Below are positions 8,213 through 55,838 of a stretch of 56,014 bases of DNA, piece after piece. Numbering within the stretch: position 1 is the first letter of the stretch; every line of letters begins with the position of its first letter. Both the position numbers and the translations under genes were made by a program. Origin of the DNA: a virus (lineage: Duplodnaviria > Caudoviricetes); the IMG/VR virus record IMGVR_UViG_3300024265_000059, positions 1-56,014 of that record; one strand, given 5' to 3'. The notes beneath the pieces were generated by a model. The model saw only the letters and a list, made by a program, of their open reading frames with translations. It was not told the DNA's origin and searched no databases.

Positions 8213-8938
8213 ATGTCTGTAGCGATTAGCGAACGAACAGTAGAAGTTCCATGGCTTATGGATACGATCAGAAGTATTGATCCAAAAGAATTGTTGGATG
8301 TTGGATATGCTGGAGGATGGTATCTGAAAAACATTCTAGACATGGGTATTTCTTGTTACGGGTTAGATTCTGATGTTGAGAGAATGAGCGGCAGGACATT
8401 CAAGGTAGACAAAAAGAAGAAGGATGAATGGATAAAGATAGCCGAAAGAATGATTACTTGCATAGCAGACATAACTAAGTACCCCGAAGCTGGCCAGGAC
8501 AATCTGGCATTTCCTGTCGTCATGTGTATCTCTACGATAGAACATATCGTACCTTGCGGGTACCAAAATGATTCTGAAGTAGACATGGAATCAGACATAA
8601 TAGCTGCAACTAATATGAAAAAACTTGTTGCAGATGATGGGTCGTTGATGTTGACGTTTCCTTGTGGTGTGGAACATTTTTTCTACAACAAGAACAGAAA
8701 GACCCCACTAAATCATCCGAAATTCACGGCAGGAAATTACGACCTGATGGTCTATGGGCGAGAAAGAATTGATATGTTGGTAGGGGATTGGAAAGTAGTA
8801 GACAAACAATTCTGGACCCGACAGAGTGGCGTAGGAAGTAGCTTCGAAAAATGTGACGAAGATATAGCATTACGCAAGGTTCCCATTGTAAACATACCGG
8901 TACAATCAGTTTGCGCTATCAGGATGGTGGCACCATGA
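8213..8938 (+). CDS. SAM-dependent methyltransferase-like protein
   Basis: ERTVEVPW, LLDVG, CISTIEHI, G.L.LTFP; GGAG SD before ATG 8213. Confidence 0.7.
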   Translation: MSVAISERTVEVPWLMDTIRSIDPKELLDVGYAGGWYLKNILDMGISCYGLDSDVERMSGRTFKVDKKKKDEWIKIAERMITCIADITKYPEAGQDNLAFPVVMCISTIEHIVPCGYQNDSEVDMESDIIAATNMKKLVADDGSLMLTFPCGVEHFFYNKNRKTPLNHPKFTAGNYDLMVYGRERIDMLVGDWKVVDKQFWTRQSGVGSSFEKCDEDIALRKVPIVNIPVQSVCAIRMVAP

Positions 8939-11932: not shown

Positions 11933-12474
11933 TATCGTTTGACGACAAGAACTATATCGTTTGTCATGTTTACTACCGCACAATGGGTAGTCACGATCAG
12001 CGTCTAATGCCATATGTCACAGACAGAATTGAACACAGAAGAACATTTGGTCTAGTATCTAGACACGATAAACTGTTCTGGGTCAAAGAGTATACACAGC
12101 CAGATTATGGACACAGTATTACCTACGAATTCGAAGAAACATCAAAATTGCACTATCCAACAACGGTAGACGGGAACTTAATCAGAACTGTTCGTATGAT
12201 CAGCGTTAGTGGCAACAGATTGTTGATGGAATATTGCGATGGATATGTCAAGCTAAAAGATGCAAAGCTTAATCCAGATCAGAGGAAAATGGTCACCAAG
12301 CTTATTAGCAAATGGATAGACGAACACGACGTGCATGATTATGATATGTGCGAAAATAACATAATGGTAAAAGCAGAGAGCAACTTGAGTTTGATCCTTA
12401 TCGATTTCGAATATTCGGTTGGAGTCAATGAGGAAAGATGGTTAAGATTTTTGGAAGGCTGGTTTAATGCCTAA
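11914..12474 (+). CDS. Protein-kinase-like fold kinase (sugar/LPS kinase-like)
   Basis: WVKEY, LLMEYCDG, YDMCENNIMV, LIDFE. Confidence 0.65.
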   Translation: MEIDQIISFDDKNYIVCHVYYRTMGSHDQRLMPYVTDRIEHRRTFGLVSRHDKLFWVKEYTQPDYGHSITYEFEETSKLHYPTTVDGNLIRTVRMISVSGNRLLMEYCDGYVKLKDAKLNPDQRKMVTKLISKWIDEHDVHDYDMCENNIMVKAESNLSLILIDFEYSVGVNEERWLRFLEGWFNA

Positions 12475-29086: not shown

Positions 29087-29096
29087 ATTATACACC
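29087..29096 (-). promoter_or_regulatory. Putative late promoter GGTGTATAAT
   Basis: Motif recurs upstream of minus-strand genes. Confidence 0.6.
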
Positions 29097-29775: not shown

Positions 29776-29785
29776 TTTATACACA
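29776..29785 (-). promoter_or_regulatory. Putative late promoter TGTGTATAAA
   Basis: Motif variant just upstream of the GGAGG SD of 29760. Confidence 0.5.
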
Positions 29786-36068: not shown

Positions 36069-39000
36069 CTAATACCCGTGTATATACATGTTTCCACTGG
36101 TATTATACACCCCAACGACAGCATTCAAGAACAAGCTAAGTCCACTAGGACCGTTGTTCACGATACCAGAAACGCCCATTAGATAAAGAGGTACTGTACC
36201 AGTAGGTTGTCCAAAGAGTCCTTCGATAAACAGATCGCCAGACGCAAAAATAGTGATTGGGGCTGCACCCGATATATACAGAGTGGTGGTATTGAACAGT
36301 CCCTGATCTACCCTTAGAAATAGTGTCCACGGGTTTTGTGCTTCGTGTGGTATATACCCGATTCTTCCAGGATCAGATGGATCGATACTACAACGGAGAC
36401 TGAGGGTACCACTCAATTCGTTCCCGTGTGGAGATGATCCAGATGCATGTCCATAAGTAACAAGACTGAACGACCCACTCGTCGTAGTATCCGCCTTCAG
36501 GAACATAGACCAATTTTGGTCTTGGTTTAGATTCCCCGAACCCACTCGCATGAACATAGACCAATTTTGCGTCCCGCCTGCTGTGTATGGGAAATTAGCG
36601 TCTGTAGCTTCAAGATACAAAGGCATATTGTTAAATGTTTGATTGACTCCAGATTGTCCAGACGCAGGAATAAATCCATGTGTGAAAAGATTGACTGAGT
36701 TGTTGGAGGTACTAGATTCTGTTTTTATGTACATAGTCAATGACAGCCGTGCGGGTAGCGGTCCAATATATAGCGTCATTGTTCCAGTTATTGGTAAGTG
36801 AGCTTCCATAAATAAATCGGCATCGGATGTAAATGGTAGCGGTCCCCTAGTGACCAAGTTTAGACTTGGGCCACCAGACGGAGTAGTGAACAGACTCGCA
36901 TCTAATGGATAGGCAAAATCTCCACTCGTCGTAATGAATTCTGGTCCTTTGATGTACAAATCTCTAATGCGGTCTCTAACAAAAACGCCGTGCATAAACA
37001 AATCAATAGAATCGAATGAACCCGCTTGTGTGTATAAAGACAATTGACCACTGGATGGTAGTGGACCGATTATGACCATATCCATAGAGCCAGTGGCTAA
37101 TTCATGGCCGGTGGTAACCATTTCTAATCCAGATGGATAAGCCCCACTTGTGTCAATAACTACTCTATTTTCAATGAACAGCGGGAATTGTCCACTCACA
37201 GCTTCTGGTGCGCTCATAAAGAGATCAAAATCTAAAATTATTTGAGCGCCTAATGACCCACCCATGTAAAGATCGTGATTCCCACTTGAAAGTGGTGGAG
37301 CACCACCAACATAAAGATTAACGTTACCAGTTGAAGCTATGGGGTCTCCTGGGATAAATTTCAGTGCATCCCAATAACCTAAAGTCAGAAATTCATGTTG
37401 ATCTGCGGTGCTGTTGGTCTTTAATTCTATTTCACTTCCTATTACGTTTACGGAAATTCGTAATGTATCGGCACACGTATCTGTTGGTGCTATATTCGTT
37501 TGACGAATAGTAAAGAATCTATTATTGTTAGAACCAACCTCTCTGCAACCAAAGTTGCGTTCGTTATTGTTGTCACGGTTTTCGATAACCACTTCGGCTA
37601 TACTGCCATCTGGTACGGTTACACTTTTTGCTTGCCAAATATGATCGGTAGTCGTATCTGCCAAAACCTCAAAAGCTTCATTGTAGGTTCCGGGAGCCAA
37701 AGACCATCTACCAATAGCCGTAAGAGTTATGTCTGCATCTGTCGTTGCGTATCCTTGTATTGTGCCGTTAACGCCACTTGTATTTACATGGAGACTAGTA
37801 TGATCTGGATAATTCGTAAGGCCAGGGGATATTGAATGATAACGATTAAGGGACGAACCAACCTGTCGAATTCCACCACTTTGTTGTATGCTGGTGTTCG
37901 CATTAGAAATCACTATATCGACTATTTGAGAAACGTAATCTGTTCCTAGATTAACATTAGTCCAGGCACTATCTGCGCCAACACTAAACTCTTCCATCGT
38001 TTCTACATATGTTGCACCTACCCAGTACCCCAATAACCAAAAATTAACCCAAGATGCACTATCGGCATATATTTCGATTTTTCCGCCAGAGCTAACCGGA
38101 ACAAGCATACTAACAAGATCATATCCATTGCCGGTTGGTATGCGTAAACCGAATTTGCGTTCTAGTGAACTGTCTACAGACCTAACACCACCACTGTAAG
38201 ATATTGATGTAAATTGATTTCCCAGAAGTATTTCTGCGACAACTGGGTCTCTTTCGGTTGACTTTGGTACATTTCTATTTGTGAATATGTCATACTCTTC
38301 CCACGTACCTACTCCGGTGGTAGTGAACACTGTGGGATCGCCTTCTACGTAATGTACAATTGGGTCACGACCTATTATGATCATATCGATTCCAGCGGCA
38401 TGTGGAAGTATTTGACCAGAAACAAAATTATCCCAATAGCTTACGACTACAAATTGTGGGTCATCGGGACTAATATCCCCGGCTAAATGTTGAACATTAC
38501 CGCCAGAGTCAACATTAACATTCATTTGAATCCAACTGAGACCATCTTCACTTAACGATTCTTGTAAGTTGACGTATCGATCATCAGAAGATGATGTATT
38601 TCTTACACCAATGAGTTGATTGTCAGTAAGATTTTGACCCAACAAGAATGAAGCAACAGAATTATTGGGAATACCAGAGGCACTAACATCAAGTGTTTCC
38701 CAGGTAGAATCAATGCTAGGTTTCGGAAAAGAAACATCTGCTTCTGTATAGTCTCCGGGTGCAACATTGAGATATCCTAGAATATAGACATTGCAGTCAG
38801 TATTATCTTCGGCATATATGTCAATTGCAGCGGTGACACCACTTGCTTGAACCCATTGACTCAAGCAAGTTTCGCCGCCATTAATAGATTGGGTTAGGTC
38901 GAACAAGTGTTCGCGAGTAGAACCGCTAGCCCTGACACCTACTTCTCTTGCAAGAGCGGTATCTACGTTTGTCATGGTGACATCTACTATTTGGCCACCA

Positions 39001-45876: not shown

Positions 45877-46953
45877 TTATCTACGATTGATGCTTTTAAC
45901 ATGATTTTTTTGCATCTCCGATAATTGTTGTCTCATTTCTCGTTGACTATCGGGCATATTTTGTTCTGTTATAGAACCTTCCTGTTGTAATATTTTTTGA
46001 CGAGCCCTTATTTGAGCACGAGATTTTGGATCGTTCATATTGTAAACACGTTTCGAACCATCCTGATCAGACATTATGAAAACTTCATTCTTTCCTGGTT
46101 TATTAGGCGTTTTAACACTAGATTCAGCCGATTTACTATCAATCTTTTCTCCCTGATGAATAAACCAAGAATCCAACAAGTCATCGTCTTCGATAATTTG
46201 TTTCGAAGGACGCTCATACGCCGCATAAACCGAATCGTAGATAGTAGACCAGTAAACAAGTTCTCTCTGATTCAATGACCACGATGTAACTGGGTTATCA
46301 AATAAATCATTGGTACATTTTGATATTTCCCAATATGATCTCCATTGTGGCGATCTAGCTAAGCGACGAATATCAGATGGTAACATACGAGACTTACGAT
46401 AGTAATATTCACAAAGTTGAGATATTAATGCTGAATCTGAAAAATTGTCGAAATCATCCGTTGTTGGCCAGAATTTATTACCATCATCATCTTCTGTAAT
46501 CTGGCTCATCAAATATCTTTGTTGACAAAGCTCAGCATGAGATTCGATACTGTTCTGCAATAGCTTATGTTTCGTTTTTAGATGCTCCATCAGAACTTTT
46601 TCGGCACGACGCAAAAGGGATCGTGAGTGTTCAAGTTTTGTCGTATTGAATACAAGACTAAGCAATCCTCGTCTGATCGTGTGAATATCTTTTTGTAGTC
46701 CTTCGATTGTGTCTTCTTGTTCTATGCTCCACTGTTTAAGGTCTATCAAATACGAAAGCAATTCCTGTTCAGAAAACAACTTCAAAATACTACCGCGTCT
46801 TATCTCTAGATTATAAACTGAAACAGACTTGGCTTGCTCTTTGGGTGTGGGGGGTCGGAGTATGAGTGAAATGATTTCTCCCTTGTCGGTGCTGACAACA
46901 GCCGGAATGCATCCCCAGCTTATCGTGGCTATAAGTCGCTCATTGTCGACCAT
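45877..46953 (-). CDS. Hypothetical protein
   Basis: 358-aa ORF; YDSVY...E.P...IIEDDD.LD.W motif. Confidence 0.6.
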   Translation of the reverse strand: MVDNERLIATISWGCIPAVVSTDKGEIISLILRPPTPKEQAKSVSVYNLEIRRGSILKLFSEQELLSYLIDLKQWSIEQEDTIEGLQKDIHTIRRGLLSLVFNTTKLEHSRSLLRRAEKVLMEHLKTKHKLLQNSIESHAELCQQRYLMSQITEDDDGNKFWPTTDDFDNFSDSALISQLCEYYYRKSRMLPSDIRRLARSPQWRSYWEISKCTNDLFDNPVTSWSLNQRELVYWSTIYDSVYAAYERPSKQIIEDDDLLDSWFIHQGEKIDSKSAESSVKTPNKPGKNEVFIMSDQDGSKRVYNMNDPKSRAQIRARQKILQQEGSITEQNMPDSQREMRQQLSEMQKNHVKSINRR

Positions 46954-47028: not shown

Positions 47029-47038
47029 ATTATACACC
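47029..47038 (-). promoter_or_regulatory. Putative late promoter GGTGTATAAT
   Basis: Directly after terminator 47051-47083, upstream of 46953. Confidence 0.6.
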
Positions 47039-47110: not shown

Positions 47111-47659
47111 TTAGAATCGCCTTTGGTCTTTCGTCTCTGTAGGAACGCACGTAACGATCGCCAAAAGTTCTACACCAGTGGAGAATCCCACACCAACTGC
47201 ATTGTTGGCTTGAGCGGACAAGGTTGTTCTCAAAGAACCGCCCTTCGGAACAGCAGTCCATGTCTGATCCAAACTCACATCGACCCGGTCGCCAGCATTG
47301 GATGGAGCCTTGAACAGGCTCTTGTCTGTATCTGACGATACACCTGAGCAATCAACCGATATTGCTGTATCCCAGACTACCGATGTTGGTGCTGTTGGGG
47401 ATGCATCAACTTCGTTGGAAGTCTGCAATGCCACAGTCAGATTAGACCCTGCGCCTGCAAAACCACTAGCGACAAGCGATACTGCTTGGACTTCAAATGC
47501 AACTACCTTTACGGCGAAAGGACAGTCCTTCGTGAAAATTGCTTCCGTATCGGTTACTGCCGATCCAGACACAGCCGTAGCGGATAGTGTCTTGTACATC
47601 TTGAATGGTTTTGGAGCCGGATTCAGATTCGCTCCCCATGTATCAGTTACTAATGGCAT
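47111..47659 (-). CDS. Putative virion structural protein
   Basis: Monocistronic (promoter 47751, GGAGG SD, terminator); A/S/T/V-rich beta protein. Confidence 0.55.
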   Translation of the reverse strand: MPLVTDTWGANLNPAPKPFKMYKTLSATAVSGSAVTDTEAIFTKDCPFAVKVVAFEVQAVSLVASGFAGAGSNLTVALQTSNEVDASPTAPTSVVWDTAISVDCSGVSSDTDKSLFKAPSNAGDRVDVSLDQTWTAVPKGGSLRTTLSAQANNAVGVGFSTGVELLAIVTCVPTETKDQRRF

Positions 47660-47742
47660 AACTCTCTACCTCCCTAAAAAAGATAAGGCTACTGAGATTC
47701 CGCCCAACGTAGGAACGAAGGCTTAGTAGATTCACCAATGGT

Positions 47743-47751
47743 TTATACACC
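47743..47751 (-). promoter_or_regulatory. Putative late promoter GGTGTATAA
   Basis: Motif copy upstream of 47659. Confidence 0.55.
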
Positions 47752-47815
47752 ACGGGTATTTTTATGGGGGCAGATGCCGTTATTCCTGTGTTTCCCACAT
47801 TGCAAGAGATAATAA

Positions 47816-47889
47816 CAGGCCGAGCAAGGTTCGAACTTGCAACCTCCAGGTTCAAAGCCTGGCGCTCTGTCCAGTTGAGCTATCGGCCC
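47816..47889 (-). tRNA. tRNA-Gln(UUG)
   Basis: Cloverleaf; anticodon arm CCAGG-CTTTGAA-CCTGG; G1.U72 pair. Confidence 0.88.
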
Positions 47890-47892
47890 ATA

Positions 47893-47977
47893 CGGATGGC
47901 GGTGGACTCGAACCACAGACGTTTGACCGCCCCAACCGGTTAGCAACCGGCGGCAGGGCCTTTCTGCTTCACCATCC
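47893..47977 (-). tRNA. tRNA-Ser(GCU)
   Basis: GCCGG-TTGCTAA-CCGGT, long variable arm, G73. Confidence 0.88.
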
Positions 47978-48031
47978 AAAGACCCCATTCTATGGAGTAT
48001 ATATACTCCTTAGAACAAGGTAAATCCAAAA

Positions 48032-48117
48032 CGGAAGATAGAGGAATCGAACCCCCGACGCTCATCACGCCGCCCTCGGGTTCAAACCGAGTTTCCGACC
48101 ATTCAGAGGTATCTTCC
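48032..48117 (-). tRNA. tRNA-Ser(UGA)
   Basis: CTCGG-TTTGAAC-CCGAG, long variable arm, G73. Confidence 0.88.
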
Positions 48118-48126
48118 AGTGCGCAC

Positions 48127-48160
48127 AAAAAAACCGGACAATCCCAAGGGACCATCCGGT
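48127..48160 (-). terminator. Intrinsic terminator (attenuator) 9 nt upstream of tRNA-Ser(UGA)
   Basis: ACCGGAUGGUCC cuug GGAUUGUCCGG followed by U7. Confidence 0.85.
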
Positions 48161-48189
48161 TCTGATTCTGTGTTTTAGTGTACTCGAAT

Positions 48190-48261
48190 CTACACAGCAT
48201 CCCCCAGACGGCCAAGAGACCGTTGACTACTCGATTGGGATGACTGCTGTCGATTTTTCAT
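48190..48261 (-). CDS. Ser/Gln-rich leader peptide MKNRQQSSQSSSQRSLGRLGDAV (putative attenuator leader)
   Basis: GGAG SD 6 nt before ATG; 6 Ser + 4 Gln among codons 5-15; stop about 30 nt before the terminator. Confidence 0.75.
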   Translation of the reverse strand: MKNRQQSSQSSSQRSLGRLGDAV

Positions 48262-48337
48262 CTTGTTCTCCAAAAAAAACCAGCCCTTGATGCACGTAAC
48301 CCAATTGAGAAAGAGGTGCGGCTGGTGTGTTACTATG

Positions 48338-48346
48338 TTATACACC
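48338..48346 (-). promoter_or_regulatory. Putative promoter GGTGTATAA upstream of the Ser/Gln leader
   Basis: Motif copy immediately 3' of tRNA-Ile. Confidence 0.55.
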
Positions 48347-48348
48347 AA

Positions 48349-48424
48349 TGCGCCTAGATGGATTTGAACCACCGACATCACGCTTATCAGGCGTGCGCTC
48401 TGAGCCAGACTGAGCTACAGGCAC
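48349..48424 (-). tRNA. tRNA-Ile(GAU)
   Basis: CACGC-CTGATAA-GCGTG. Confidence 0.9.
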
Positions 48425-48429
48425 TTCAA

Positions 48430-48502
48430 CGGGCCGGGAAGGAGTCGAACCCTCAACCAACGGCTTTGGAAACCGACGCTCTGCCAATTAAGCTACCGAC
48501 CC
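48430..48502 (-). tRNA. tRNA-Trp(CCA)
   Basis: CGGT-TTCCAAA-GCCG, G73. Confidence 0.88.
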
Positions 48503-48530
48503 ACTATCTTGTTCGTTCAAAAAAACACAA

Positions 48531-48604
48531 CGGGCCGGGTGGGACTCGAACCCACGATAGCCGGGTTAGAAACCCAGTCCTTTGTCCATCTAAGGTACCA
48601 GCCC
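48531..48604 (-). tRNA. tRNA-Arg(UCU)
   Basis: CTGGG-TTTCTAA-CCCGG. Confidence 0.88.
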
Positions 48605-48608
48605 AACA

Positions 48609-49697
48609 TTATTCGACATTATCCCGTTCTAATTTGTTATTGTGAGGACGAATCCTCTTCATCACATAGCTGTCGACCTTGTGATAGTGACTATCGAGTA
48701 AAGCAAACATGGCAGGCGTATGCTTGACTTTTTGTGCCTTGGCTGCAAAATCGCATCTTGGAACTCGATCCATAATTCCGCCGAATTCTTCGAAATAGAT
48801 GTCATCAAACTCCTTATGAATTTCACTATGTAATGTCTGATACTGCTTCTCTAGTACTTCAACAATACTGTTAAGAAGATCGTGGTACTCTATATCCACT
48901 TGACTCCAAACGTCTTTTGTCACTTCTCCATCTACCATGTTGTTCCACATGACTAGCGGAGTAAGGTTGCTCAACAGATGATGCCGCCTGAAATAATCTT
49001 CCGACTTGATTTTGACACGAAAGCCATTGGTAAATCTGATAACAAAACCTTCTTGCTCATTACCCGGAATGGTCTTCAATGATCCACGACACGCGCCTAA
49101 CCAATTTTGATCATAGGACTTTACGAGTGTAAAGCCGTAATCGCTGGCAAAACTTGCTACTTCGCACCAACGATATTCTTTGCCGGTGTGTCTATTATAC
49201 GCAGAAAGCAAAACCAAATCCTCACGATCTCCGTAGTCAACAACAATTTTCGTGATTGGGCATATCAATTCGAAAACTAGAGTAACCTCATCTGGGAATC
49301 CATCAAGATCGTAATTATCATCTAGAAATTTCGAAGCCCATATCGCTCCAGGACTAGTGAATGAACCGCGAGAAGCAACCTTGTGCTGACCAGCATGACG
49401 ATAAAGAGAGCCAAACCATCCATCCTCTTTTTTGAATATTCTGAACCCATCGTGCCATGGTAGATTACGCTCCTGAGTGTCTGTTCTCTCGTTCATGTTG
49501 AAGAACTTGGGGAAGGTCTGTGCCACAACCTCTCCTGTCTGGCGATTGAAGATTATACCTCTGCTGTTTATCGTAGTTTCATCCCACTGTTTGCAGTGAT
49601 TGGTGTAGTTGTAGATACGAAGATCATCAAGATCAGCACATCTCAGCACGCCTTCTGCAACCAGACGATCTCGTATTTCTATTTGTGGGTGTTTCAT
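48609..49697 (-). CDS. RNA ligase, T4 Rnl1 family
   Basis: YNY, SRGIIF, FPKFFN, motif I KEDG, ASRGSF.S, FELI.P..IVVDY, EGFVI, RVKIK..DY. Confidence 0.88.
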   Translation of the reverse strand: MKHPQIEIRDRLVAEGVLRCADLDDLRIYNYTNHCKQWDETTINSRGIIFNRQTGEVVAQTFPKFFNMNERTDTQERNLPWHDGFRIFKKEDGWFGSLYRHAGQHKVASRGSFTSPGAIWASKFLDDNYDLDGFPDEVTLVFELICPITKIVVDYGDREDLVLLSAYNRHTGKEYRWCEVASFASDYGFTLVKSYDQNWLGACRGSLKTIPGNEQEGFVIRFTNGFRVKIKSEDYFRRHHLLSNLTPLVMWNNMVDGEVTKDVWSQVDIEYHDLLNSIVEVLEKQYQTLHSEIHKEFDDIYFEEFGGIMDRVPRCDFAAKAQKVKHTPAMFALLDSHYHKVDSYVMKRIRPHNNKLERDNVE

Positions 49698-49707
49698 GTC
49701 TTTTTTC

Positions 49708-50187
49708 CTAGACTTTCCCTGAAATCAATTGGTCTATTTCTTCAATTGCGATATTCGTCATTTTCTGCAATTCTTTGTCATCGCAATCTTTGTTTTTTTT
49801 TCTGAAGTTTCTTCTGATATTTCGGACAGATACCTTGGCGTCTTCTCCAAGTTTGTTCATCTTTGAAGCAACTTCTCGTCTGGTATCTCCAGAAATAAGC
49901 GGTATGTTTACCACCACGGTTGTCTTAGAAAATTTGTACGCATCAAAACCTTGCTTCTTCAATTCTTCCTCTACCTTCGCCATTATCGATGGATCATATG
50001 GTGTTATAGATATTCTTCTGTCTTTTTGGTTGATCAAGCACAGATGTTCAAGCGGTGTCTGTTGACCACTGTAATCTATTGTCACAGTAGAAATTAGATC
50101 GTCATTGATATTGCCGCCCATTCCTTTAAGTTGATCTCTAAGAAAATCAACAGTTTTCTTCATGAGCGATCTGGTTTTTTCCATCAC
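49708..50187 (-). CDS. frr: Ribosome recycling factor (shortened)
   Basis: M.K..D.L..., I.YSGQ.TPL, I.I.PYD, IP.ISG..R, E.AKVSVRNIRR, ELQK.T...I.EID. Confidence 0.85.
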   Translation of the reverse strand: MMEKTRSLMKKTVDFLRDQLKGMGGNINDDLISTVTIDYSGQQTPLEHLCLINQKDRRISITPYDPSIMAKVEEELKKQGFDAYKFSKTTVVVNIPLISGDTRREVASKMNKLGEDAKVSVRNIRRNFRKKNKDCDDKELQKMTNIAIEEIDQLISGKV

Positions 50188-50197
50188 AAACCTCCAA

Positions 50198-50270
50198 TGG
50201 GTCGGGTGGGATTCGAACCCACGGCCCCCCGCTTAAAAGGCGGAAGCTCTGTCCACTGAGCTACCAACCC
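50198..50270 (-). tRNA. tRNA-Lys(UUU)
   Basis: TCCGC-CTTTTAA-GCGGG. Confidence 0.9.
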
Positions 50271-50273
50271 ATA

Positions 50274-50347
50274 TGGGAATGGTGAGATTCGAACTCACGA
50301 CCCGCTGGTTAAGAGCCAGCCGCTCTGATCCGCTGAGCTACATTCCC
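50274..50347 (-). tRNA. tRNA-Lys(CUU)
   Basis: GCTGG-CTCTTAA-CCAGC. Confidence 0.9.
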
Positions 50348-50350
50348 GAA

Positions 50351-50421
50351 TACCAGTGACAGGAGTCGAACCTGCGCCTCCTGATCCACAGTCAGGCGTT
50401 CTGCCGTTAAACCACACCGGC
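50351..50421 (-). tRNA. tRNA-His(GUG)
   Basis: CCTGA-CTGTGGA-TCAGG; A73, no encoded G-1. Confidence 0.88.
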
Positions 50422-50429
50422 TACGACAA

Positions 50430-50514
50430 TGGGCAGGATAGGACTCGAACCTACACGCCCTGTTAAGGGACCGGGTTTACAGCCCGGCGAGCCAGCCAAT
50501 TGCTCAACCTACCC
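50430..50514 (-). tRNA. tRNA-Tyr(GUA)
   Basis: CCGGG-CTGTAAA-CCCGG, long variable arm. Confidence 0.9.
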
Positions 50515-50739
50515 TTATGACTCAACCACCAATTGTTCTGGCATGGCCAGAAAAACACTCCCACCAGTAGAGACTATATAAACAATTTTGTTTCCGTTAC
50601 AACCTCTTGTGGAGTAATTGATCCATCCTTCGAGTATAACCGTTTTGTAACCAGGAGAATAATGTCCTGGCGCATGTTTTTGATACACGAATGATTCGCC
50701 AACAATTAATTCATCACGTTTCGCTTGTCTGTATTCCAT
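50515..50739 (-). CDS. Hypothetical protein
   Basis: 74-aa ORF filling the inter-tRNA space, GAGAG SD-like. Confidence 0.5.
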   Translation of the reverse strand: MEYRQAKRDELIVGESFVYQKHAPGHYSPGYKTVILEGWINYSTRGCNGNKIVYIVSTGGSVFLAMPEQLVVES

Positions 50740-50810
50740 GTCAACTCTCTACTGCAAAACAACTTTCGAAATCAAACCAGTTTAGTGTATGTAAGAATTC
50801 CCATGATTTT

Positions 50811-51182
50811 TTAACCTCTCTTGAGTTTATTCTGCTCGCGAATTTTTATTGATTGACGTTTCACAGCCTTCCAAACCCAATCTGGTAACCACGGATAATC
50901 GACCTGAAATTCCTCAATAAAAAACAAATATTCCGCTATCCCCTCTGCCCACATTTTAATATGAAGATTCAAATACCCCTTAGCGAGAAGTACATTCCTA
51001 AGTAAATCAGATTCTCTACAAGGAACATTCTTGCCATCTGAGTCCTTGAAAGCAAAAGCTTCTATTGCAGAGTACCCATCTTTGTGTTCATAAACAAATG
51101 GCAGTTCGCCCATCACCCGCATACGAGAGTTAACCAAAACATATAGATTAAAGTTGCGACGTACCTTGTGACCAATTTTCAT
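50811..51182 (-). CDS. Hypothetical protein
   Basis: Start moved to ATG 51182 because the longer ORF overlaps tRNA-Leu(CAA). Confidence 0.55.
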   Translation of the reverse strand: MKIGHKVRRNFNLYVLVNSRMRVMGELPFVYEHKDGYSAIEAFAFKDSDGKNVPCRESDLLRNVLLAKGYLNLHIKMWAEGIAEYLFFIEEFQVDYPWLPDWVWKAVKRQSIKIREQNKLKRG

Positions 51183-51202
51183 ACTTATACCGACTTCCTT
51201 AA

Positions 51203-51286
51203 TGCCTAAGACTGGATTCGAACCAGTACGCCCTTTCGGACACGGGTTTTTGAAACCCGCGCGTCTGCCAGTTCCGCCACATAGGC
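51203..51286 (-). tRNA. tRNA-Leu(CAA)
   Basis: CGGGT-TTCAAAA-ACCCG, long variable arm, A73. Confidence 0.9.
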
Positions 51287-51290
51287 TCAA

Positions 51291-51363
51291 TGCCCCGAAT
51301 AGGATTCGAACCTATACTGACATGGTTCTAAACCATGTTCCTCTGCCGTTGGGATACCGGGGC
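51291..51363 (-). tRNA. tRNA-Leu(UAG), short variable loop
   Basis: CATGG-TTTAGAA-CCATG, 5-nt variable loop, A73. Confidence 0.82.
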
Positions 51364-51465
51364 TCATCTCCGATCCTTACTGTTTTTCCTAACAAAATTT
51401 CGGACAGCTAAGACAAATTCGTGTTCAGTATATCTTTTGGTCACATCACACACTCACGAATAAAA

Positions 51466-51549
51466 TGCCTGCGCTGGGAGTCGAACCCAGAAACCCTTGC
51501 GGGCACGAGGGTTTAAGCCCCGCTCCTTTGCCTGTTTGGACACACAGGC
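51466..51549 (-). tRNA. tRNA-Leu(UAA)
   Basis: CGGGG-CTTAAAC-CCTCG, long variable arm, A73. Confidence 0.88.
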
Positions 51550-51557
51550 TACAACGA

Positions 51558-51758
51558 CTAAAACCAAGTTCTTTTTGTTTTCCCAGAAATCAAATCAAAA
51601 CCTTCACCACATTCATGACATTTCGTGCAATGCCAATACGTTGGATTGACCACCCAAACTGTTGGATAACAACGATGATTTCTGTGATACCACGAACATC
51701 GAAGCCATTTGTGCAAAAATCTTGTAATACGTTTCAAACAATTATCACCATATTTCAC
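51558..51758 (-). CDS. Small Cys/His-rich hypothetical protein
   Basis: GGAGG SD; C...H...C.KC pattern. Confidence 0.55.
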   Translation of the reverse strand: MKYGDNCLKRITRFLHKWLRCSWYHRNHRCYPTVWVVNPTYWHCTKCHECGEGFDLISGKTKRTWF

Positions 51759-51771
51759 AATTCACCTCCAA

Positions 51772-51844
51772 TGGAAGGGAAGGGACTCGAACCCTCGACA
51801 TCTGGCTTGCAAAGCCAGCGCTCTCCCAACTGAGCTACCCCCCC
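51772..51844 (-). tRNA. tRNA-Ala(UGC)
   Basis: CTGGC-TTTGCAA-GCCAG; G3.U70 identity pair. Confidence 0.92.
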
Positions 51845-52410
51845 TATTTATCCAATTCGATCCTTCTTTTCTTGCTGTGCCTCTTTTTCTTCTGTGACAC
51901 ATAGCCTTTTGGTATAGGCTCGTCAATTACTTTGTTTACTGCTTCGATTGCCTTTTCCATATTCTCTTTGATATCTACTGTGGTGATATCATCGACATCT
52001 ATCGTAGTTGTAACCGGAAGCATGGTGTCTTCGATTTGCTCTTTCGAAAGCCCCCGATTAGGTATCACACCACTACCAGATATTGGAATGGCATGGATAC
52101 CTGGAGAGAAAAATGGTTGTTGATGATCATTTTTGAACACCTTGAAAATCATACCATCTGGTATGTATTGACTTTCAATTATCTTGACTCCATACATTCT
52201 CATTTGTCCATCTGGATCGGCACCGCCGTTACTTCTGTGGAACATCTTCTGCACTTCATACAAATCATTGGAGCTAATCAAAAAAGCTTCTACGTTATCA
52301 AGCTGTTGACCTTGTTGCTCAATCTCTCTTATGGTATCATGAAATTGCTTACGTATTCGATGCGTAGCCGCCTCAATTTCCGGATCGGAACTATGGTACA
52401 TATCAGCCAT
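51844..52410 (-). CDS. Hypothetical protein
   Basis: Start set at ATG 52410, just after the stop of ORF 52412-52573. Confidence 0.55.
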   Translation of the reverse strand: MADMYHSSDPEIEAATHRIRKQFHDTIREIEQQGQQLDNVEAFLISSNDLYEVQKMFHRSNGGADPDGQMRMYGVKIIESQYIPDGMIFKVFKNDHQQPFFSPGIHAIPISGSGVIPNRGLSKEQIEDTMLPVTTTIDVDDITTVDIKENMEKAIEAVNKVIDEPIPKGYVSQKKKRHSKKRRIELDK

Positions 52411-52411
52411 T

Positions 52412-52573
52412 TTACCCATCCCACTGTTCGTGTAGTCTGTCATCGCAGCGAGCACATTGCCATCCACTCATGGTAGAAGATCGATTGAAATCGGTTTCCC
52501 AATTATGCATATGAAGACAGATATAATTGCATCCAGCAAACCAACAAATCATCCTACGAATCATTCTCTTCAT
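52412..52573 (-). CDS. Small Cys-rich protein (53 aa; not in the ORF track)
   Basis: GGAG SD; MKRMIRRMICWFAGC...QCARC. Confidence 0.55.
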   Translation of the reverse strand: MKRMIRRMICWFAGCNYICLHMHNWETDFNRSSTMSGWQCARCDDRLHEQWDG

Positions 52574-52586
52574 GTCTCTTCTCCAA

Positions 52587-52659
52587 CTTACCCGAAGGGA
52601 TTCGAACCCTTGACCTAGCGGTTAACAGCCGCTCGCTCTATCCCCTGAGCTACGGGCAA
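52587..52659 (-). tRNA. tRNA-Asn(GUU)
   Basis: AGCGG-CTGTTAA-CCGCT; U1-A72, G73. Confidence 0.9.
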
Positions 52660-52662
52660 GAC

Positions 52663-52735
52663 TCGGGGTGAAAGGACTCGAACCTTCAACTTCGCGGCCC
52701 CAAACCGCGCACTCTTCCAATTGAGCTACACCCCG
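52663..52735 (-). tRNA. tRNA-Pro(UGG)
   Basis: CGCGG-TTTGGGG-CCGCG; C1-G72, A73. Confidence 0.92.
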
Positions 52736-53034
52736 TTTTTCACTAACTTCAAAAAACCATCAAGCGTTGAACATGTTGAATTGACAGTACACAATTTCTC
52801 AAACTCCTGGCAATGATCATCTATCAAAACGTCAGCGATTGGTTTTACGTGAGATTCTTTATCTCTATAGTCAAATCCCATCAACTGAGCGATAACTTGG
52901 CCATCATCGTGACAAGACCAAACAATAACATGATGACCACCTTTCTTAGCCCAATCCTGAAATCTGGCAAATTGAGGATGCAAATTGCCTCTTATTATAA
53001 CTGTGTCATCAAGGTCCAGAAGGATTCGCATCAA
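52726..53034 (-). CDS. Minimal HAD-superfamily phosphatase-like protein
   Basis: ILLDLDDTVI motif I, VIVWS motif II, K...DVLIDD motif IV. Confidence 0.7.
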   Translation of the reverse strand: MMRILLDLDDTVIIRGNLHPQFARFQDWAKKGGHHVIVWSCHDDGQVIAQLMGFDYRDKESHVKPIADVLIDDHCQEFEKLCTVNSTCSTLDGFLKLVKNGV

Positions 53035-53669
53035 TCTACTCCGATTACTTCAGTTTCGATTCCACGTTTCCTAGCTTCCGTCACAATATGCTTAGTCCCT
53101 TTAGACTTACTCAGATCGTCGTGGAAGGCAATCACAAGACTCGGTTTTGTATCCAGCATCTTGATGTTCCTTCTCGGTCCTGCTGACAACCCATACTTCT
53201 TCCAAGCTGCCCAGAACGTAACAACTTCAAAACCCATATTCAAAGCAAGGTTACGAGCCATGGTATCAACACCATCGCAACCGCCCTCAACTATAATAGT
53301 ATCAGACGGAAGATCGAAAAGTCGCTTTCTTATCACCTCAACTCCATCGTGTGACCAATCTCTACTGCCGCAAATAACTACCTTCATGGTTTTCTCCAAA
53401 TATTCAGCGATCACATCTCCGTGACAAGCTTCCGGCTTACAAAAACAACCAAGCCGCTTTCCCTTCAACTCTTTTGTTCTACGTGTAAATTCAGGATCAA
53501 TTTTCAATCGATTCAGAAAATACTTGCGATAGAGTTCTATGACCTTCTTTCTACCACCATCTTGGGCAACGCTGAAAGGATTGCCGAAATATCCATCATG
53601 GCCGTTCCCCGCCCTGCCAATGTATTCATCGTATTCTTGTCGACGAATATTAACGACGGTTGTCTTCAT
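53031..53669 (-). CDS. DUF4326 + DUF2493(SLOG)-like fusion protein
   Basis: YIGR....FGNPF...LKGKRLGCFCKP.ACHGDVI; then VVICGSRDW, GG..GVD, W.KYG.SAGP.RN.KML, AFH....SKGT. Confidence 0.75.
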   Translation of the reverse strand: MKTTVVNIRRQEYDEYIGRAGNGHDGYFGNPFSVAQDGGRKKVIELYRKYFLNRLKIDPEFTRRTKELKGKRLGCFCKPEACHGDVIAEYLEKTMKVVICGSRDWSHDGVEVIRKRLFDLPSDTIIVEGGCDGVDTMARNLALNMGFEVVTFWAAWKKYGLSAGPRRNIKMLDTKPSLVIAFHDDLSKSKGTKHIVTEARKRGIETEVIGVD

Positions 53670-53685
53670 GGTCCGATATTCCTAC

Positions 53686-53710
53686 AAAAAAACTCGCGAT
53701 TTCTCGCGAG
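53686..53710 (-). terminator. Intrinsic terminator (attenuator) ahead of the DUF4326/tRNA/frr/ligase block
   Basis: CUCGCGA gaaa UCGCGAG followed by U7. Confidence 0.88.
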
Positions 53711-53743
53711 CAAAAGTCTTATCTGAAATCGTTCACAGAGAGA

Positions 53744-53833
53744 CTAGCCCGCATCACCACCAGGCGCGCGCAGATTGAGTACGGCTGGGGCTAATGGATA
53801 ATTCCGTCCGGGTTTTCTATACAAGCTTCTCAC
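53744..53833 (-). CDS. Leader peptide MRSLYRKPGRNYPLAPAVLNLRAPGGDAG (putative attenuator leader; not in the ORF track)
   Basis: AGGAGG SD 8 nt before GTG; lies between promoter and terminator. Confidence 0.7.
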   Translation of the reverse strand: MRSLYRKPGRNYPLAPAVLNLRAPGGDAG

Positions 53834-53854
53834 GATTCATTCCTCCTACATATC

Positions 53855-53883
53855 ATTATACCCCAAACCAACAGGTTTGTGCC
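53855..53883 (-). promoter_or_regulatory. Promoter GGCACAAAC-N13-GTATAAT
   Basis: Third copy of the bipartite motif. Confidence 0.72.
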
Positions 53884-53908
53884 AAGAAAAATGAAAAAAA
53901 ACTGAAAA

Positions 53909-53983
53909 TAGCGGGAGAGGGATTCGAACCCTCGACCTCCGGGTTATGAGCCCGATGGGCTAACCAAACTGCCCTACCCCGCA
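53909..53983 (-). tRNA. Initiator tRNA-fMet(CAU)
   Basis: GGG/CCC anticodon stem, loop CTCATAA, unpaired 1:72 (U/U). Confidence 0.9.
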
Positions 53984-54047
53984 TCAAGTTGCCGCTGATA
54001 CGGCTCAGCGGCCAAGCCTTTATGGTTCCCCTGCCTCTGGCAGACGA

Positions 54048-54170
54048 TTACAGAAAAAACCAACAACCGGTTCCGATAACCAAAAGAGCGGCTACGATCC
54101 ATTTCCAATACATCAAAAAATAGATCGGCCACCTGATGGGCCACGGCAAATCATCAATTGACCAACTCAT
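54048..54170 (-). CDS. Small membrane protein (40 aa; not in the ORF track)
   Basis: GGAGG SD; MSWSIDDLPWPIRWPIYFLMYWKWIVAALLVIGTGCWFFL. Confidence 0.55.
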   Translation of the reverse strand: MSWSIDDLPWPIRWPIYFLMYWKWIVAALLVIGTGCWFFL

Positions 54171-54252
54171 CCTTTACCTCCTAATCGTTCTTCCATCCGC
54201 CCTCTGGGGCGTGTGATCGTCCTTATCAGACCTTCACAGTGGCATTTGTCAC

Positions 54253-54573
54253 TCATTTCGATTCGTCCCCTTTCATGTGCTTGAACATCTCGATCTCGGC
54301 CAATCTCTTATCGGCTCCCTTGCGAGTCTCAAAACAGCCAAGCTTTTTGCCCTTCTTGCTGTATATGCAGTACGGCTTACTTTTCGTGCCATCCTTACGG
54401 ATCACAGCTTTTGCTGATTCCAATGCATCTTCCGTCGCCTTCTCAAGTTCTTCATTCCAGTCAGTCACAGGACCACCTGCCTTTTGTCGTCTTGCCAGAA
54501 TCTCTTTTATCGATAGATAATACTTGTACGGCCTCTTGCCTCTTCTCTCTGCGTGCGTATGCCTTGTGCTCAT
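54253..54573 (-). CDS. Hypothetical basic protein
   Basis: VIRK...YCIYSKKGKKLGC..T...A.KRL..IE.FKH. Confidence 0.6.
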   Translation of the reverse strand: MSTRHTHAERRGKRPYKYYLSIKEILARRQKAGGPVTDWNEELEKATEDALESAKAVIRKDGTKSKPYCIYSKKGKKLGCFETRKGADKRLAEIEMFKHMKGDESK

Positions 54574-55086: not shown

Positions 55087-55368
55087 TCATCTTACGCAAT
55101 TGCACAATTGCTGTCCTTCTGATGGTGATGGTTTTCCGCAAAGCCTACAATATTCTGGTTCGTCTAAGCCTTCTTCTGAGTATCTAAGACAGAAACTACA
55201 AGGTGGAGATATATGACACGAACAACAATCATCGTTCCATCTTAAATCCACGCAGGCTATGGCGTCAGCATAATCGTTACTTGATGAGCCAACTGCACTA
55301 CGACAATCGCATTGAACAACGGAAGTAAATAACTGTATTTTTCCAGTGTCTCTGCAATCTTTACACAT
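55087..55368 (-). CDS. Cys-rich Zn-binding hypothetical protein
   Basis: CKDC..TG...C.C; CSCHISPPCSFC; CRLC...C..C. Confidence 0.55.
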   Translation of the reverse strand: MCKDCRDTGKIQLFTSVVQCDCRSAVGSSSNDYADAIACVDLRWNDDCCSCHISPPCSFCLRYSEEGLDEPEYCRLCGKPSPSEGQQLCNCVR

Positions 55369-55838
55369 TAAAGTCCATCCATAGCGTCTACGAAACCACC
55401 TGCTGTATAATATCCACGCTCTTTGGCAGTTTTCTTAGCATGACAATTGGCGCATCGGACCACACATTTTTCTATTTCTTTCAGTATTGTTGGCCAAATA
55501 CGTGTTGTCAGCATTGTTGTAATATTAGCCGTTTTTGTTCCTGTCACATGATCGAATTCAAGTGTCGCTGGATGAGTTTCTCCACAGTCGATACATGGAT
55601 GGTTTTTCAAATAGTCGAGCATCAAAGGCCAATTAATACCACAAAGTTTTTTATGATTTACTTTGGAAAGATTTATTCTTTTGTTGCGAAAATCTTCTGA
55701 TTGATCGTATCTCTCTTTATTATGTATGCTATGACACGCTTTGCACCAAGAACAATACCCATCCTTGCGAGCCCGACGTATGGCGAATTCGGAAACCGGC
55801 TTTTCTTTACCGCATTTTGAACATCTCTTGATTCTCAT
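55368..55838 (-). CDS. HNH endonuclease with N-terminal Zn ribbon
   Basis: KRCSKCG..K...EF....CKAC; CIDCG.....LEFDH....EIEKC.V.CANCH. Confidence 0.85.
   Translation of the reverse strand: MRIKRCSKCGKEKPVSEFAIRRARKDGYCSWCKACHSIHNKERYDQSEDFRNKRINLSKVNHKKLCGINWPLMLDYLKNHPCIDCGETHPATLEFDHVTGTKTANITTMLTTRIWPTILKEIEKCVVRCANCHAKKTAKERGYYTAGGFVDAMDGL

Follow-up and report, generated by a model that had tools for sequence, protein, structure and literature searches.

Leader-peptide attenuators are known for amino-acid operons and for pheST, with the trpL, hisL, pheL, thrL and ilv leaders and pheM as examples, and the T4 proteins Rnl1 (RnlA) and Pnkp reportedly repair tRNA-Lys that has been cleaved by PrrC. 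Why phages carry tRNAs has long been debated, mainly in terms of supplementing codons or of evading defences that target tRNAs; the control of tRNA expression has received hardly any attention. Here, we analyzed a 56 kb fragment (56,014 nucleotides, nt; referred to as the window) of the uncultured virus record IMGVR_UViG_3300024265_000059, which has an estimated completeness of 34% and a G+C content of 43%. The tRNA-rich region of its minus strand appears to be a translation island made up of two compact polycistronic units. A putative ribosome-mediated attenuator stands at the head of each, element A at 53.7 kb and element B at 48.2 kb, and through these the phage would exert feedback on its own tRNA supply. 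We assign this reading, which was derived from sequence comparison, a probability of roughly 0.62.

The mechanism class, classical leader-peptide attenuation, is already known, and papers on the subject include PMC3082878 and PMC1262725. Huge phages are described in section 8 of PMC7162821 as carrying translation factors, including ribosome recycling factor (RRF). The portion of PMC9503650 that deals with DUF4326 (Iyer and colleagues) predicts that this domain is rhodanese-phosphatase-like and acts on phosphates linked to the ribose of ADP-ribose derivatives. According to passages of PMC9503650 and PMC7824862, viral SLOG domains would counteract immune signals derived from NAD.

On the minus strand of the window, from 54.0 to 47.8 kb, we found tRNA-Met, a promoter-like region, leader A with its terminator, the genes for a DUF4326-SLOG fusion and a 102-residue HAD protein, 13 tRNAs with five open reading frames (ORFs), and the RRF and Rnl1 genes. 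This part is followed by leader B with its terminator and then by tRNA-Ser(tga), tRNA-Ser(gct) and tRNA-Gln(ttg).

Leader elements B and A

The features of element B are as follows.

48191..48262, minus strand: leader ORF B of 23 codons and a stop codon; codons 5-13 encode Gln/Ser
48127..48240, minus strand: alternative structures of B, helices 1:2, 2:3 and 3:4; the terminator ends in T7
47815..48118, minus strand: tRNA-Ser(tga), tRNA-Ser(gct) and tRNA-Gln(ttg), the cargo of B (ARAGORN)

Alternative structures, coding constraint and cargo association were assessed by comparing related metagenome loci, which are designated here by L numbers. For element B, nhmmer matches were found in 19 of the 35 loci, 17 distinct versions were aligned, and 14 of these shared a common register; the compared sequences share kinship, so that counts across versions or loci, here and below, are not counts of independent events. 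The leader ORF, with GGAG 6 nt ahead of its start codon, was kept in all 14 same-register versions (ATG in 12, GTG in 2). Its codons 5-13 are nine consecutive Gln/Ser codons, the Ser plus Gln background in the window ORFs being 10.3%. In particular, codons 7-11 and 13 were Ser or Gln in 14/14 versions, and codon 12 was Ser in 13/14. Synonymous changes were present at codons 6, 9, 10 and 13, where 12-14 of the 14 versions preserved the residue; all of TCG, TCT, TCC and TCA were used at codon 10, and codon 9 was CAA in eight versions and CAG in six. Because residues of the run were kept through synonymous changes while the flanking codons 3, 15, 16, 21 and 22 varied freely in residue, the comparison indicates that leader B is translated and that selection acts on which tRNA is read, beyond the RNA sequence. 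We also found that the leader uses both serine boxes (UCN and AGY) together with Gln codons, in keeping with the pair of Ser isoacceptor genes and the single Gln gene downstream. This match between the Ser/Gln leader and its tRNAs supports the corresponding part of the original prediction.

RNAalifold analysis of the 17 versions revealed helix 1:2 inside the ORF and the long terminator 3:4, with 26 pairs, five of them compensatory; in the outer part of helix 1:2, the Ser-codon UCCC was paired with GGGG. Helix 2:3, a 10-base-pair (bp) antiterminator, joins the 3' strand of helix 1:2 to the 5' arm of the terminator. A total of 98.2% of its 168 cells were paired, compared with 15-50% in six slid registers, and one of its pairs switched from C-G to U-A in four sequences. 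The z value of the B fold was -2.88. As judged from the alignment, the three helices 1:2, 2:3 and 3:4 are mutually exclusive, which is the trp-type arrangement.

Among the versions listed, tRNA-Ser and/or tRNA-Gln lay downstream in 15 of the 19 distinct B versions. An unbiased scan was performed over 301 distinct small-ORF/tRNA-cluster pairs, scored by the share of leader codons that match two amino acids of the downstream tRNAs; the top eight scores (0.45-0.55) all belonged to B leaders, and nothing comparable came next. In L012, where the Ser tRNA genes have been lost, the two AGT codons were lost too.

Taken from these data, it is highly probable that B is a functional attenuator giving codon-specific feedback on the Ser/Gln tRNA supply of the phage. 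For both elements, we infer that a ribosome stalls, which way regulation runs and what triggers it. If Ser- or Gln-tRNA runs short, a ribosome would stall on the run of leader B and open helix 1:2; helix 2:3 could then form, the terminator would be blocked, and RNA polymerase would read into tRNA-Ser(UGA), tRNA-Ser(GCU) and tRNA-Gln(UUG). With sufficient tRNAs, the ribosome would reach the stop codon and cover region 2, and the terminator would form. The loop would be closed in this way, with the phage sensing and topping up its own tRNA supply.

Several further observations were made around B. Past the B terminator, segments of L014 (~11960-12140) and L002 (~8370-8460) resemble the window tRNA-Ser genes and were not called by ARAGORN; they may be degenerate copies. 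Just downstream of the tRNA-Ser/Ser/Gln genes, two minus-strand genes were rich in Ser plus Gln (45877-46953, 17.9%; 47111-47659, 13.2%) compared with the background of the window ORFs. If their products are abundant virion proteins, they could explain the demand for Ser/Gln tRNAs. The 5' untranslated region of the gene for a 182-residue protein (47660-47742, minus strand) showed DNA-level conservation in L008, L009, L010, L012 and L014 and contained GAATCT in two repeated segments; the region may represent the structured leader of a gene with high expression. On the minus strand past tRNA-Gln, up to the next promoter-like motif and this 182-residue gene, no terminator-like site was listed.

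The features of element A are as follows.

53850..53900, minus strand: promoter region of A, with a -10-like box GGGTATAAT (53856-53863 plus one base), an upstream AACAAAC-type box and a T-rich stretch
53744..53833, minus strand: leader ORF A, 29 codons, GTG start, peptide end GGDAG
53685..53752, minus strand: alternative structures of A, the antiterminator and the terminator hairpin (53711-53692), then T7

For element A, 11 versions were aligned and 10 A-bearing loci were compared. An attenuator at 53.7 kb had been proposed with a 7-codon ATG ORF as its leader; the leader/terminator element proved real in comparison, but the leader is an ORF of 29 codons (27-29 among versions) that starts at GTG 53833, 8 nt past AGGAGG, with homologous leaders in 11 versions, and the overlapping 7-codon ORF is not conserved. 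The leader peptide ended in GGDAG in seven of the ten leaders compared. A helix of 12-14 bp can form between the leader 3' end, stop codon included, and the flank and 5' arm of the terminator, and the stop codon (TAG or TAA) was located inside the 5' strand of this antiterminator in 11/11 versions. Folding without the 3' arm of the terminator gave the antiterminator in all 11 versions, and on the alignment 87% of its 151 cells were paired versus 16-51% in slid registers. The terminator itself contains eight pairs, seven of which showed compensatory changes across the 11 versions. In L009, the altered end of leader A was matched by a change in the terminator flank. Additionally, an upstream segment of the leader can pair with the leader 3' end, as seen in single-sequence folds. 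The promoter region was kept in ten of the 11 versions, and the eleventh, L224, ends at a contig edge.

Some codons of leader A were constant. AGA was kept at the conserved Arg position in 8/8 comparable leaders, TTA, which makes up only 12% of the phage Leu codons, was kept in seven, and TAT, AAT and CCA were kept too; all five are read by tRNAs of the window island. This constancy is suggestive, and shared descent or RNA constraints could explain it. By hand count, Asn, Pro, Ala and Leu together made up 14 of 28 residues in the window leader and 11 of 26 in L014 and L007, versus a background of 23.7%; this excess is suggestive only, and GC-rich pairing may force Ala and Pro codons.

Both elements are conserved and built like ribosome-mediated attenuators, in agreement with the original prediction, and A is probably an attenuator of the same kind as B. 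A ribosome at the leader stop codon would favour termination. Element A would gate the DUF4326-SLOG and HAD genes and, by read-through, also the 13 tRNAs, RRF and Rnl1. Its likeliest signal would be general translation speed or the few A/U-ending codons (AGA, TAT, TTA, AAT, CCA) read by island tRNAs. Through element A, the translation-support and counter-defence island would come to depend on how well the conserved leader is translated.

Two additional sequence features flank element A. Between the T-run of the terminator and the next start codon (53670-53684, minus strand), a TATCGGAC-type box was nearly invariant in the 11 versions, even where a different ORF came next (L007, L213). Upstream, a GC-rich hairpin of the CCGCTGA...TCAGCGG type (53984-54012, minus strand) precedes the promoter; among relatives, a T-run comes after this hairpin, which resembles the terminator of the upstream unit, and in the window tRNA-Met lies between the hairpin and the T-rich stretch. 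Rfam searches of both leader regions, at the gathering score and at E up to 5, returned no family.

Transcription units, cargo and variability of the island

The remaining features of the region are as follows.

53909..53983, minus strand: tRNA-Met(cat), initiator-like (ARAGORN, Rfam), mismatched at 1:72 and with three G-C pairs at the loop end of its anticodon stem
53031..53669, minus strand: DUF4326 plus YAcAr-SLOG fusion, 212 residues (Pfam), first gene past attenuator A
52726..53034, minus strand: capless HAD-fold phosphatase-like protein, 102 residues (motifs, AlphaFold2 model, structural matches)
52586..52735, minus strand: tRNA-Pro(tgg) and tRNA-Asn(gtt) (ARAGORN, Rfam)
51844..52573, minus strand: 53-residue Cys-rich ORF (52412-52573) and 207-residue ORF (51844-52467), no family
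51203..51844, minus strand: tRNA-Ala(tgc), 66-residue Cys/His-rich ORF (51558-51758), tRNA-Leu(taa), tRNA-Leu(tag) and tRNA-Leu(caa) (ARAGORN, Rfam)
50515..51182, minus strand: two ORFs of ~123 and 74 residues, no family
50197..50514, minus strand: tRNA-Tyr(gta), tRNA-His(gtg), tRNA-Lys(ctt) and tRNA-Lys(ttt) (ARAGORN, Rfam)
49708..50187, minus strand: divergent RRF homologue, 159 residues (Pfam RRF 7e-25)
48609..49697, minus strand: T4 RnlA (Rnl1)-family RNA ligase homologue, 362 residues (RNA_lig_T4_1 2e-21)
48349..48605, minus strand: tRNA-Arg(tct), tRNA-Trp(cca) and tRNA-Ile(gat) (ARAGORN, Rfam)
48271..48345, minus strand: A/B boundary, with promoter-like motif GTGTATAA at 48338-48345, hairpin 48326-48279 and T8 run

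Calling with ARAGORN gave 17 tRNAs, 15 of which were confirmed by Rfam at the gathering score as a second check; both tRNA-Ser genes scored lower. The 13 island tRNAs (48349-52735; Pro, Asn, Ala, three Leu, Tyr, His, two Lys, Arg, Trp and Ile) and the three behind B make up a block of 16 tRNA genes. The mismatch and the G-C pairs of tRNA-Met, which we take to be hallmarks of initiator tRNAs, agree with the earlier placement of an initiator tRNA outside the block and upstream of the regulated promoter. Every gene and tRNA of the earlier inventory was likewise recovered in its place on the minus strand; the five ORFs of 207, ~123, 74, 66 and 53 residues are additions to that inventory.

The block from DUF4326-SLOG to tRNA-Ile is compact, with gaps mostly between -56 and 26 nt and two longer ones of 102 and 71 nt, and Shine-Dalgarno sequences begin 9-13 nt past tRNA 3' ends. 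The original prediction stated that no clear terminator occurs until ~48.3 kb, and our minus-strand scan from 53692 to ~48280 indeed found no convincing site, only a weak 7-bp one inside frr. A promoter-like motif, G[GT]GTATAA, had eight exact matches in the window against 2.8 expected, a number reached in 0 of 100 shuffles; seven are on the minus strand (29088, 29777, 36103, 47030, 47743, 48338 and 53856), and no match was found between 48.35 and 53.85 kb. Sigma-70-like sites were at chance level (16 versus 15.7 expected) and gave no support for sigma-70 promoters inside the block. Because the block is compact and contains neither a convincing internal terminator nor the recurrent promoter motif, a single transcript from the 53.86-kb promoter across the 13 tRNAs, RRF and the ligase is the simplest reading, as had been proposed.

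Between tRNA-Ile and leader B, the motif GTGTATAA (48338-48345) is followed by a hairpin and T8 run (48326-48271, z = -2.05). This arrangement was repeated in L199 and L201, and in relatives a GTGTATAA-type motif lies ahead of a small zinc-finger ORF, which is followed by leader B. Because a promoter-like motif and a T8 hairpin intervene, B does not appear to be simply the tail of the A operon, and the layout indicates that A and B are two units.

The GTGTATAA motif was observed on the minus strand at 29088-29095, 29777-29784, 36103-36110, 47030-47037, 47743-47750 and 48338-48345, usually with TG or GG before it and with no conserved -35 element. ORF starts, among them those of the 182- and 358-residue genes, follow the motif at distances of 30-90 nt, and it resembles a promoter class that is specific to the phage and possibly late. 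Ahead of leader A, the motif (GGGTATAAT together with the conserved upstream AACAAAC-type box) is unlike this class.

The first gene behind A encodes both DUF4326 (PF14216, 5e-23, residues 5-89) and a YAcAr SLOG domain (PF10686, 7e-9, residues 95-159) in one polypeptide. This gene follows A in nine of the ten A-bearing loci, directly in seven (the spacing in L213 being outside that check) and after small ORFs in L007 and L009. The HAD gene start overlaps the DUF4326-SLOG stop by 4 nt, and the same position is kept in L010; for these two reasons, we tie the HAD protein to DUF4326-SLOG rather than to the ligase. The four HAD motifs (DxDxT, S, K, DD) were represented by D7, D9, T11, S40, K59, D72 and D73, which are invariant or nearly so in 21 sequences. 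The AlphaFold2 model had a pLDDT of 96.8, and the best 50 structural matches (VIA) were all titled HAD-fold phosphatases, dehalogenases or P-type ATPases, with Z 8.0-9.9 over 91-102 residues. Foldseek gave no row at E <= 0.001; the T4 Pnkp phosphatase appeared as a weak row at rank 23 (E 0.06, TMq 0.52). Pfam gave no match at 0.01, a word-based protein search returned only the protein itself, and family sequence profiles against the PDB gave weak HAD rows only (best E 0.02). As judged from these data, the protein is a generic capless HAD core that is not specifically Pnkp-like.

The RRF homologue matched the Pfam RRF model (7e-25) over residues 25-158 on model positions 11-159 of 164, and its divergence is evident from a TIGR00496 score of 69.7 bits, the equivalog cut-off being 149. 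Between tRNA-Lys and the Shine-Dalgarno sequence of the RRF gene there are 9 nt. The Rnl1 homologue matched PF09511 (2e-21) and phrog_562 (2e-53), with a TIGR02308 score of 60.6 bits, under the cut-off of 242; a KEDG motif, which we take to be nucleotidyl-transferase motif I, is readable in its translation. The ORFs of 207, ~123, 74, 66 and 53 residues and the proteins p182, p358, p134 and p317 had no family in Pfam, PHROGs and NCBIfam searches. Two of the small ORFs (51558-51758 and 52412-52573, minus strand) are Cys/His-rich and fit tightly between tRNAs, the Shine-Dalgarno sequence of each being directly behind a tRNA, and a homologue of the 66-residue ORF lies between RRF and Rnl1 in L010 (8078-8281). 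Homologues of the 207-residue protein were present in L002, L008, L009, L012, L014 and L230.

Megablast of positions 47600-54300 against phage records gave no match, and close relatives among deposited phages were not found. Relatives were retrieved through the ligase, DUF4326-SLOG and the 182-residue protein; they are phages with genomes of 160-180 kb, with terminal repeats in two records, and the genome size of the phage was estimated at ~165 kb. When B was sought with a loose gapped DNA pattern, most of the loci obtained were chance matches and filtering left no contig beyond those in the comparison set, and pattern scans over viral contigs found no close relative of the RRF.

The shared backbone consists of a 106-residue protein, A, DUF4326-SLOG, a variable island, B, tRNA-Ser/Gln and proteins of 182, 358, 134 and 317 residues. 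Island content differs in almost every relative, with 0 to ~20 tRNAs and with Rnl1 present or absent, and L207 has no island at all. RRF is restricted to the window and the L010/L205 lineage, two lineages in the phage family. At least two tRNAs lie downstream in all ten A-bearing loci, with Rnl1 in five of the ten and RRF in one. In L215, A directly precedes four tRNAs and the DUF4326 gene is reduced to a remnant. By this comparison, the island is accessory and hypervariable, and RRF and Rnl1 are sporadic cargo that fits the translation theme, not fixed partners of the attenuators. The map thus shows translation-related cargo (tRNAs, Rnl1, RRF) shuffled within one bounded hotspot.

An HNH endonuclease gene (55368-55838, minus strand; phrog_2255, 7e-33) is located upstream of the island, and a paralogue with 36% identity lies right after Rnl1 in L007 (9855-10265). 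Homing endonucleases may drive the island variability. ARAGORN also gave unusual calls in L213, L223, L221 and L230, namely two four-base anticodons (ccga, gtgg), tRNA-Tyr(ata) and tRNA-Phe(aaa), which may be mis-calls, pseudogenes or genuine oddities.

Competing explanations

A number of observations weigh against two units under feedback control. No sequencing run on record as RNA was found to hold the stretch. The T8 hairpin follows the promoter-like motif at 48338 and precedes leader B, which complicates the question of which transcripts reach B, and the block may contain internal promoters of an unrecognised class. The covariation of leader and cargo in B is imperfect: L225 keeps the leader and terminator without tRNA, L008 has the full Ser/Gln run with tRNA-Gln alone downstream, and L231 and L215 keep AGT codons without tRNA-Ser(gct). 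In the antiterminator of A, variation was mostly from G-C to G-U, with a double-sided change in one pair only, and its covariation score was reached by 67 of 500 shuffles. Leader A has no control-codon run, and in this respect the earlier interpretation was not supported. Its codons cognate to window tRNAs numbered 15 of 28 versus a background of 46% (P = 0.27), and the 10 of 13 among the first 13 codons (P = 0.024) depend on a cut chosen post hoc; overall enrichment was not significant, which weakens the idea that leader A simply samples codons cognate to the island tRNAs. Furthermore, L010/L205 carries DUF4326-SLOG, HAD, three tRNAs, RRF and Rnl1 without A or B, and L002 and L228 carry tRNAs and Rnl1 without A.

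Regulation might be absent altogether, the hairpins being plain, partly leaky terminators or insulators, the small ORFs micro-proteins or untranslated, and expression set by infection timing only. Consistent with this, the B terminator is kept without the leader in L222 and L227 and without tRNAs in L225, terminator-like sites in the region show only a modest excess (14 versus 8.1 in shuffles, standard deviation 2.9), and RNA runs holding the stretch are missing from the record. A plain terminator, however, needs neither a Ser/Gln run preserved through synonymous variation, nor a covarying helix inside the leader ORF, nor alternative helices that share the terminator strands, nor a stop codon placed within the A antiterminator in 11/11 versions, and for this reason we consider an absence of regulation very improbable. 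A different proposal gives element A mainly the control of DUF4326-SLOG (with HAD) as a counter-defence enzyme, the tRNAs, Rnl1 and RRF being passengers in a permissive insertion hotspot. DUF4326-SLOG follows A in nine of the ten loci while the rest of the island varies, the sequence from terminator to start codon is conserved, HNH endonuclease genes flank the island, and the fusion is predicted, in the part of PMC9503650 concerned, to process ADP-ribose derivatives of host immunity. We nevertheless think it unlikely that the tRNAs are passengers: they lie downstream in all ten A-bearing loci, no terminator separates them from the enzyme genes, A stands directly before four of them in L215, where the DUF4326 gene is a remnant, and a translation-sensing switch has no obvious tie to ADP-ribose chemistry.

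The original prediction was that of an inducible system dedicated to rescue from host defences that cleave tRNAs, in which the attenuators detect tRNA destruction and switch on the tRNAs, repair by ligase and HAD, and RRF. This interpretation is partly supported. The attenuators appear real, the cargo is translation-related, and the island tRNAs include those for Lys, Tyr, His, Asn and Arg, which are presumably targets of known anticodon nucleases. Portions of the literature describe phage tRNAs that offset anticodon nucleases and PARIS (PMC10264068; PMC11464382) and name RNA repair with tRNA provisioning as a counter-defence theme of large phages (PMC7824862). Several of its components were not borne out. 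No counterpart of the Pnkp partner of a T4-type Rnl1 was found: PNK3P (PF08645) occurred in 0/5 records, four of them at least 96% complete, and, with the window being only 34% of a genome, this result does not establish absence from the whole genome behind the window. The kinase family AAA_33 (PF13671) occurred in two of the five records and was absent from two near-complete genomes carrying Rnl1. The HAD gene, whose product had been tentatively proposed to heal RNA ends, overlaps DUF4326-SLOG and not the ligase, with T4 Pnkp as a weak Foldseek row only, and DUF4326-SLOG, which had been drawn into tRNA rescue, has ADP-ribose derivative processing as its published prediction in the relevant part of PMC9503650. 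The tRNAs, ligase and RRF did not behave as a conserved module, given their frequencies behind A and the full cargo of L010/L205 without attenuators, and A and B, treated as one system, are separated by the T8 hairpin (48326-48271) and promoter-like motif. Moreover, the Ser and Gln codons sensed by B point to feedback on its own cargo rather than to a general alarm. No observation specifically favoured host tRNA cleavage as the signal or repair of the damage by ligase plus HAD. A dedicated rescue system thus seems to us about as unlikely as the passenger status of the tRNAs. Two attenuator-headed units with feedback on phage tRNA supply remain our preferred reading.

We hold a broader generalization only tentatively: tRNA islands could be under closed-loop, codon-specific control, with B as the first described leader-peptide attenuator that gates the sensed tRNAs themselves and with A as a multi-codon 'hungry codon' or translation-speed sensor, which would make the whole island (13 tRNAs, RRF, RNA ligase and ADP-ribose-processing enzymes) inducible when host decoding capacity falls through codon mismatch, shut-off or tRNA-cleaving defences.

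Comparison with known systems

In open-access full-text literature, our search met no account of leader peptides controlling tRNA genes or the tRNA clusters of phages. A possible precedent, a Phe-rich leader at the E. coli tRNA-Phe genes, was set aside, as the ~105 nt between yqgA and pheV of K-12 showed promoter-like sequence only and no leader ORF; a literature search on pheU/pheV yielded nothing relevant.

The likeness of the Rnl1 homologue to the T4 repair enzyme is that it matches the family model in both its N-terminal and its C-terminal part and is set among phage tRNA genes. It differs in that PNK3P was missing from all five records, in a bit score far under the NCBIfam equivalog cut-off, and in the absence of the ligase from half of the A-gated islands. 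Compared with the tRNA clusters of large phages, as covered in parts of PMC10264068, PMC11464382 and PMC7824862, the island has the same dense tRNAs and small ORFs, variable content and association with an RNA ligase, although leader-peptide control is not described for those clusters in these parts. An RRF homologue is also phage-borne in the huge phages of PMC7162821 (section 8); here, in contrast, it belongs to a ~165 kb phage, lies inside a tRNA island directly after tRNA-Lys, and occurs in only two lineages of the family. The DUF4326-SLOG domain fusion is the same as that among the DUF4326 fusions to SLOG, Macro or NADAR of large DNA viruses (PMC9503650; PMC7824862), whereas its position as the first gene behind a putative translation-sensing attenuator, with a coupled HAD gene next, is a context not mentioned in the portions of those papers that treat the fusions.

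The closest likeness is to the classical attenuators. Element B has a short leader with control codons, exclusive helices 1:2, 2:3 and 3:4, and an intrinsic terminator before the regulated genes; classical attenuators read the availability of charged tRNA through a stalling ribosome, and B appears built to match. In contrast to these systems, tRNA genes would be regulated here in place of genes for biosynthesis or for synthetases, the switches belong to a phage, and A lacks a codon run. Because the genes regulated by B are tRNA genes, the sensed molecule would be the product of the regulated genes. If the feedback reading holds, B would be a compact, portable sensor of Ser/Gln-tRNA availability, and the phage would measure decoding capacity directly and top up specific tRNAs on demand. 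Classical attenuation would then extend from amino-acid and synthetase operons to tRNA genes, and what would be new here is the use of tRNA genes as the regulated genes, the phage setting, and two switches bounding a hypervariable tRNA island.

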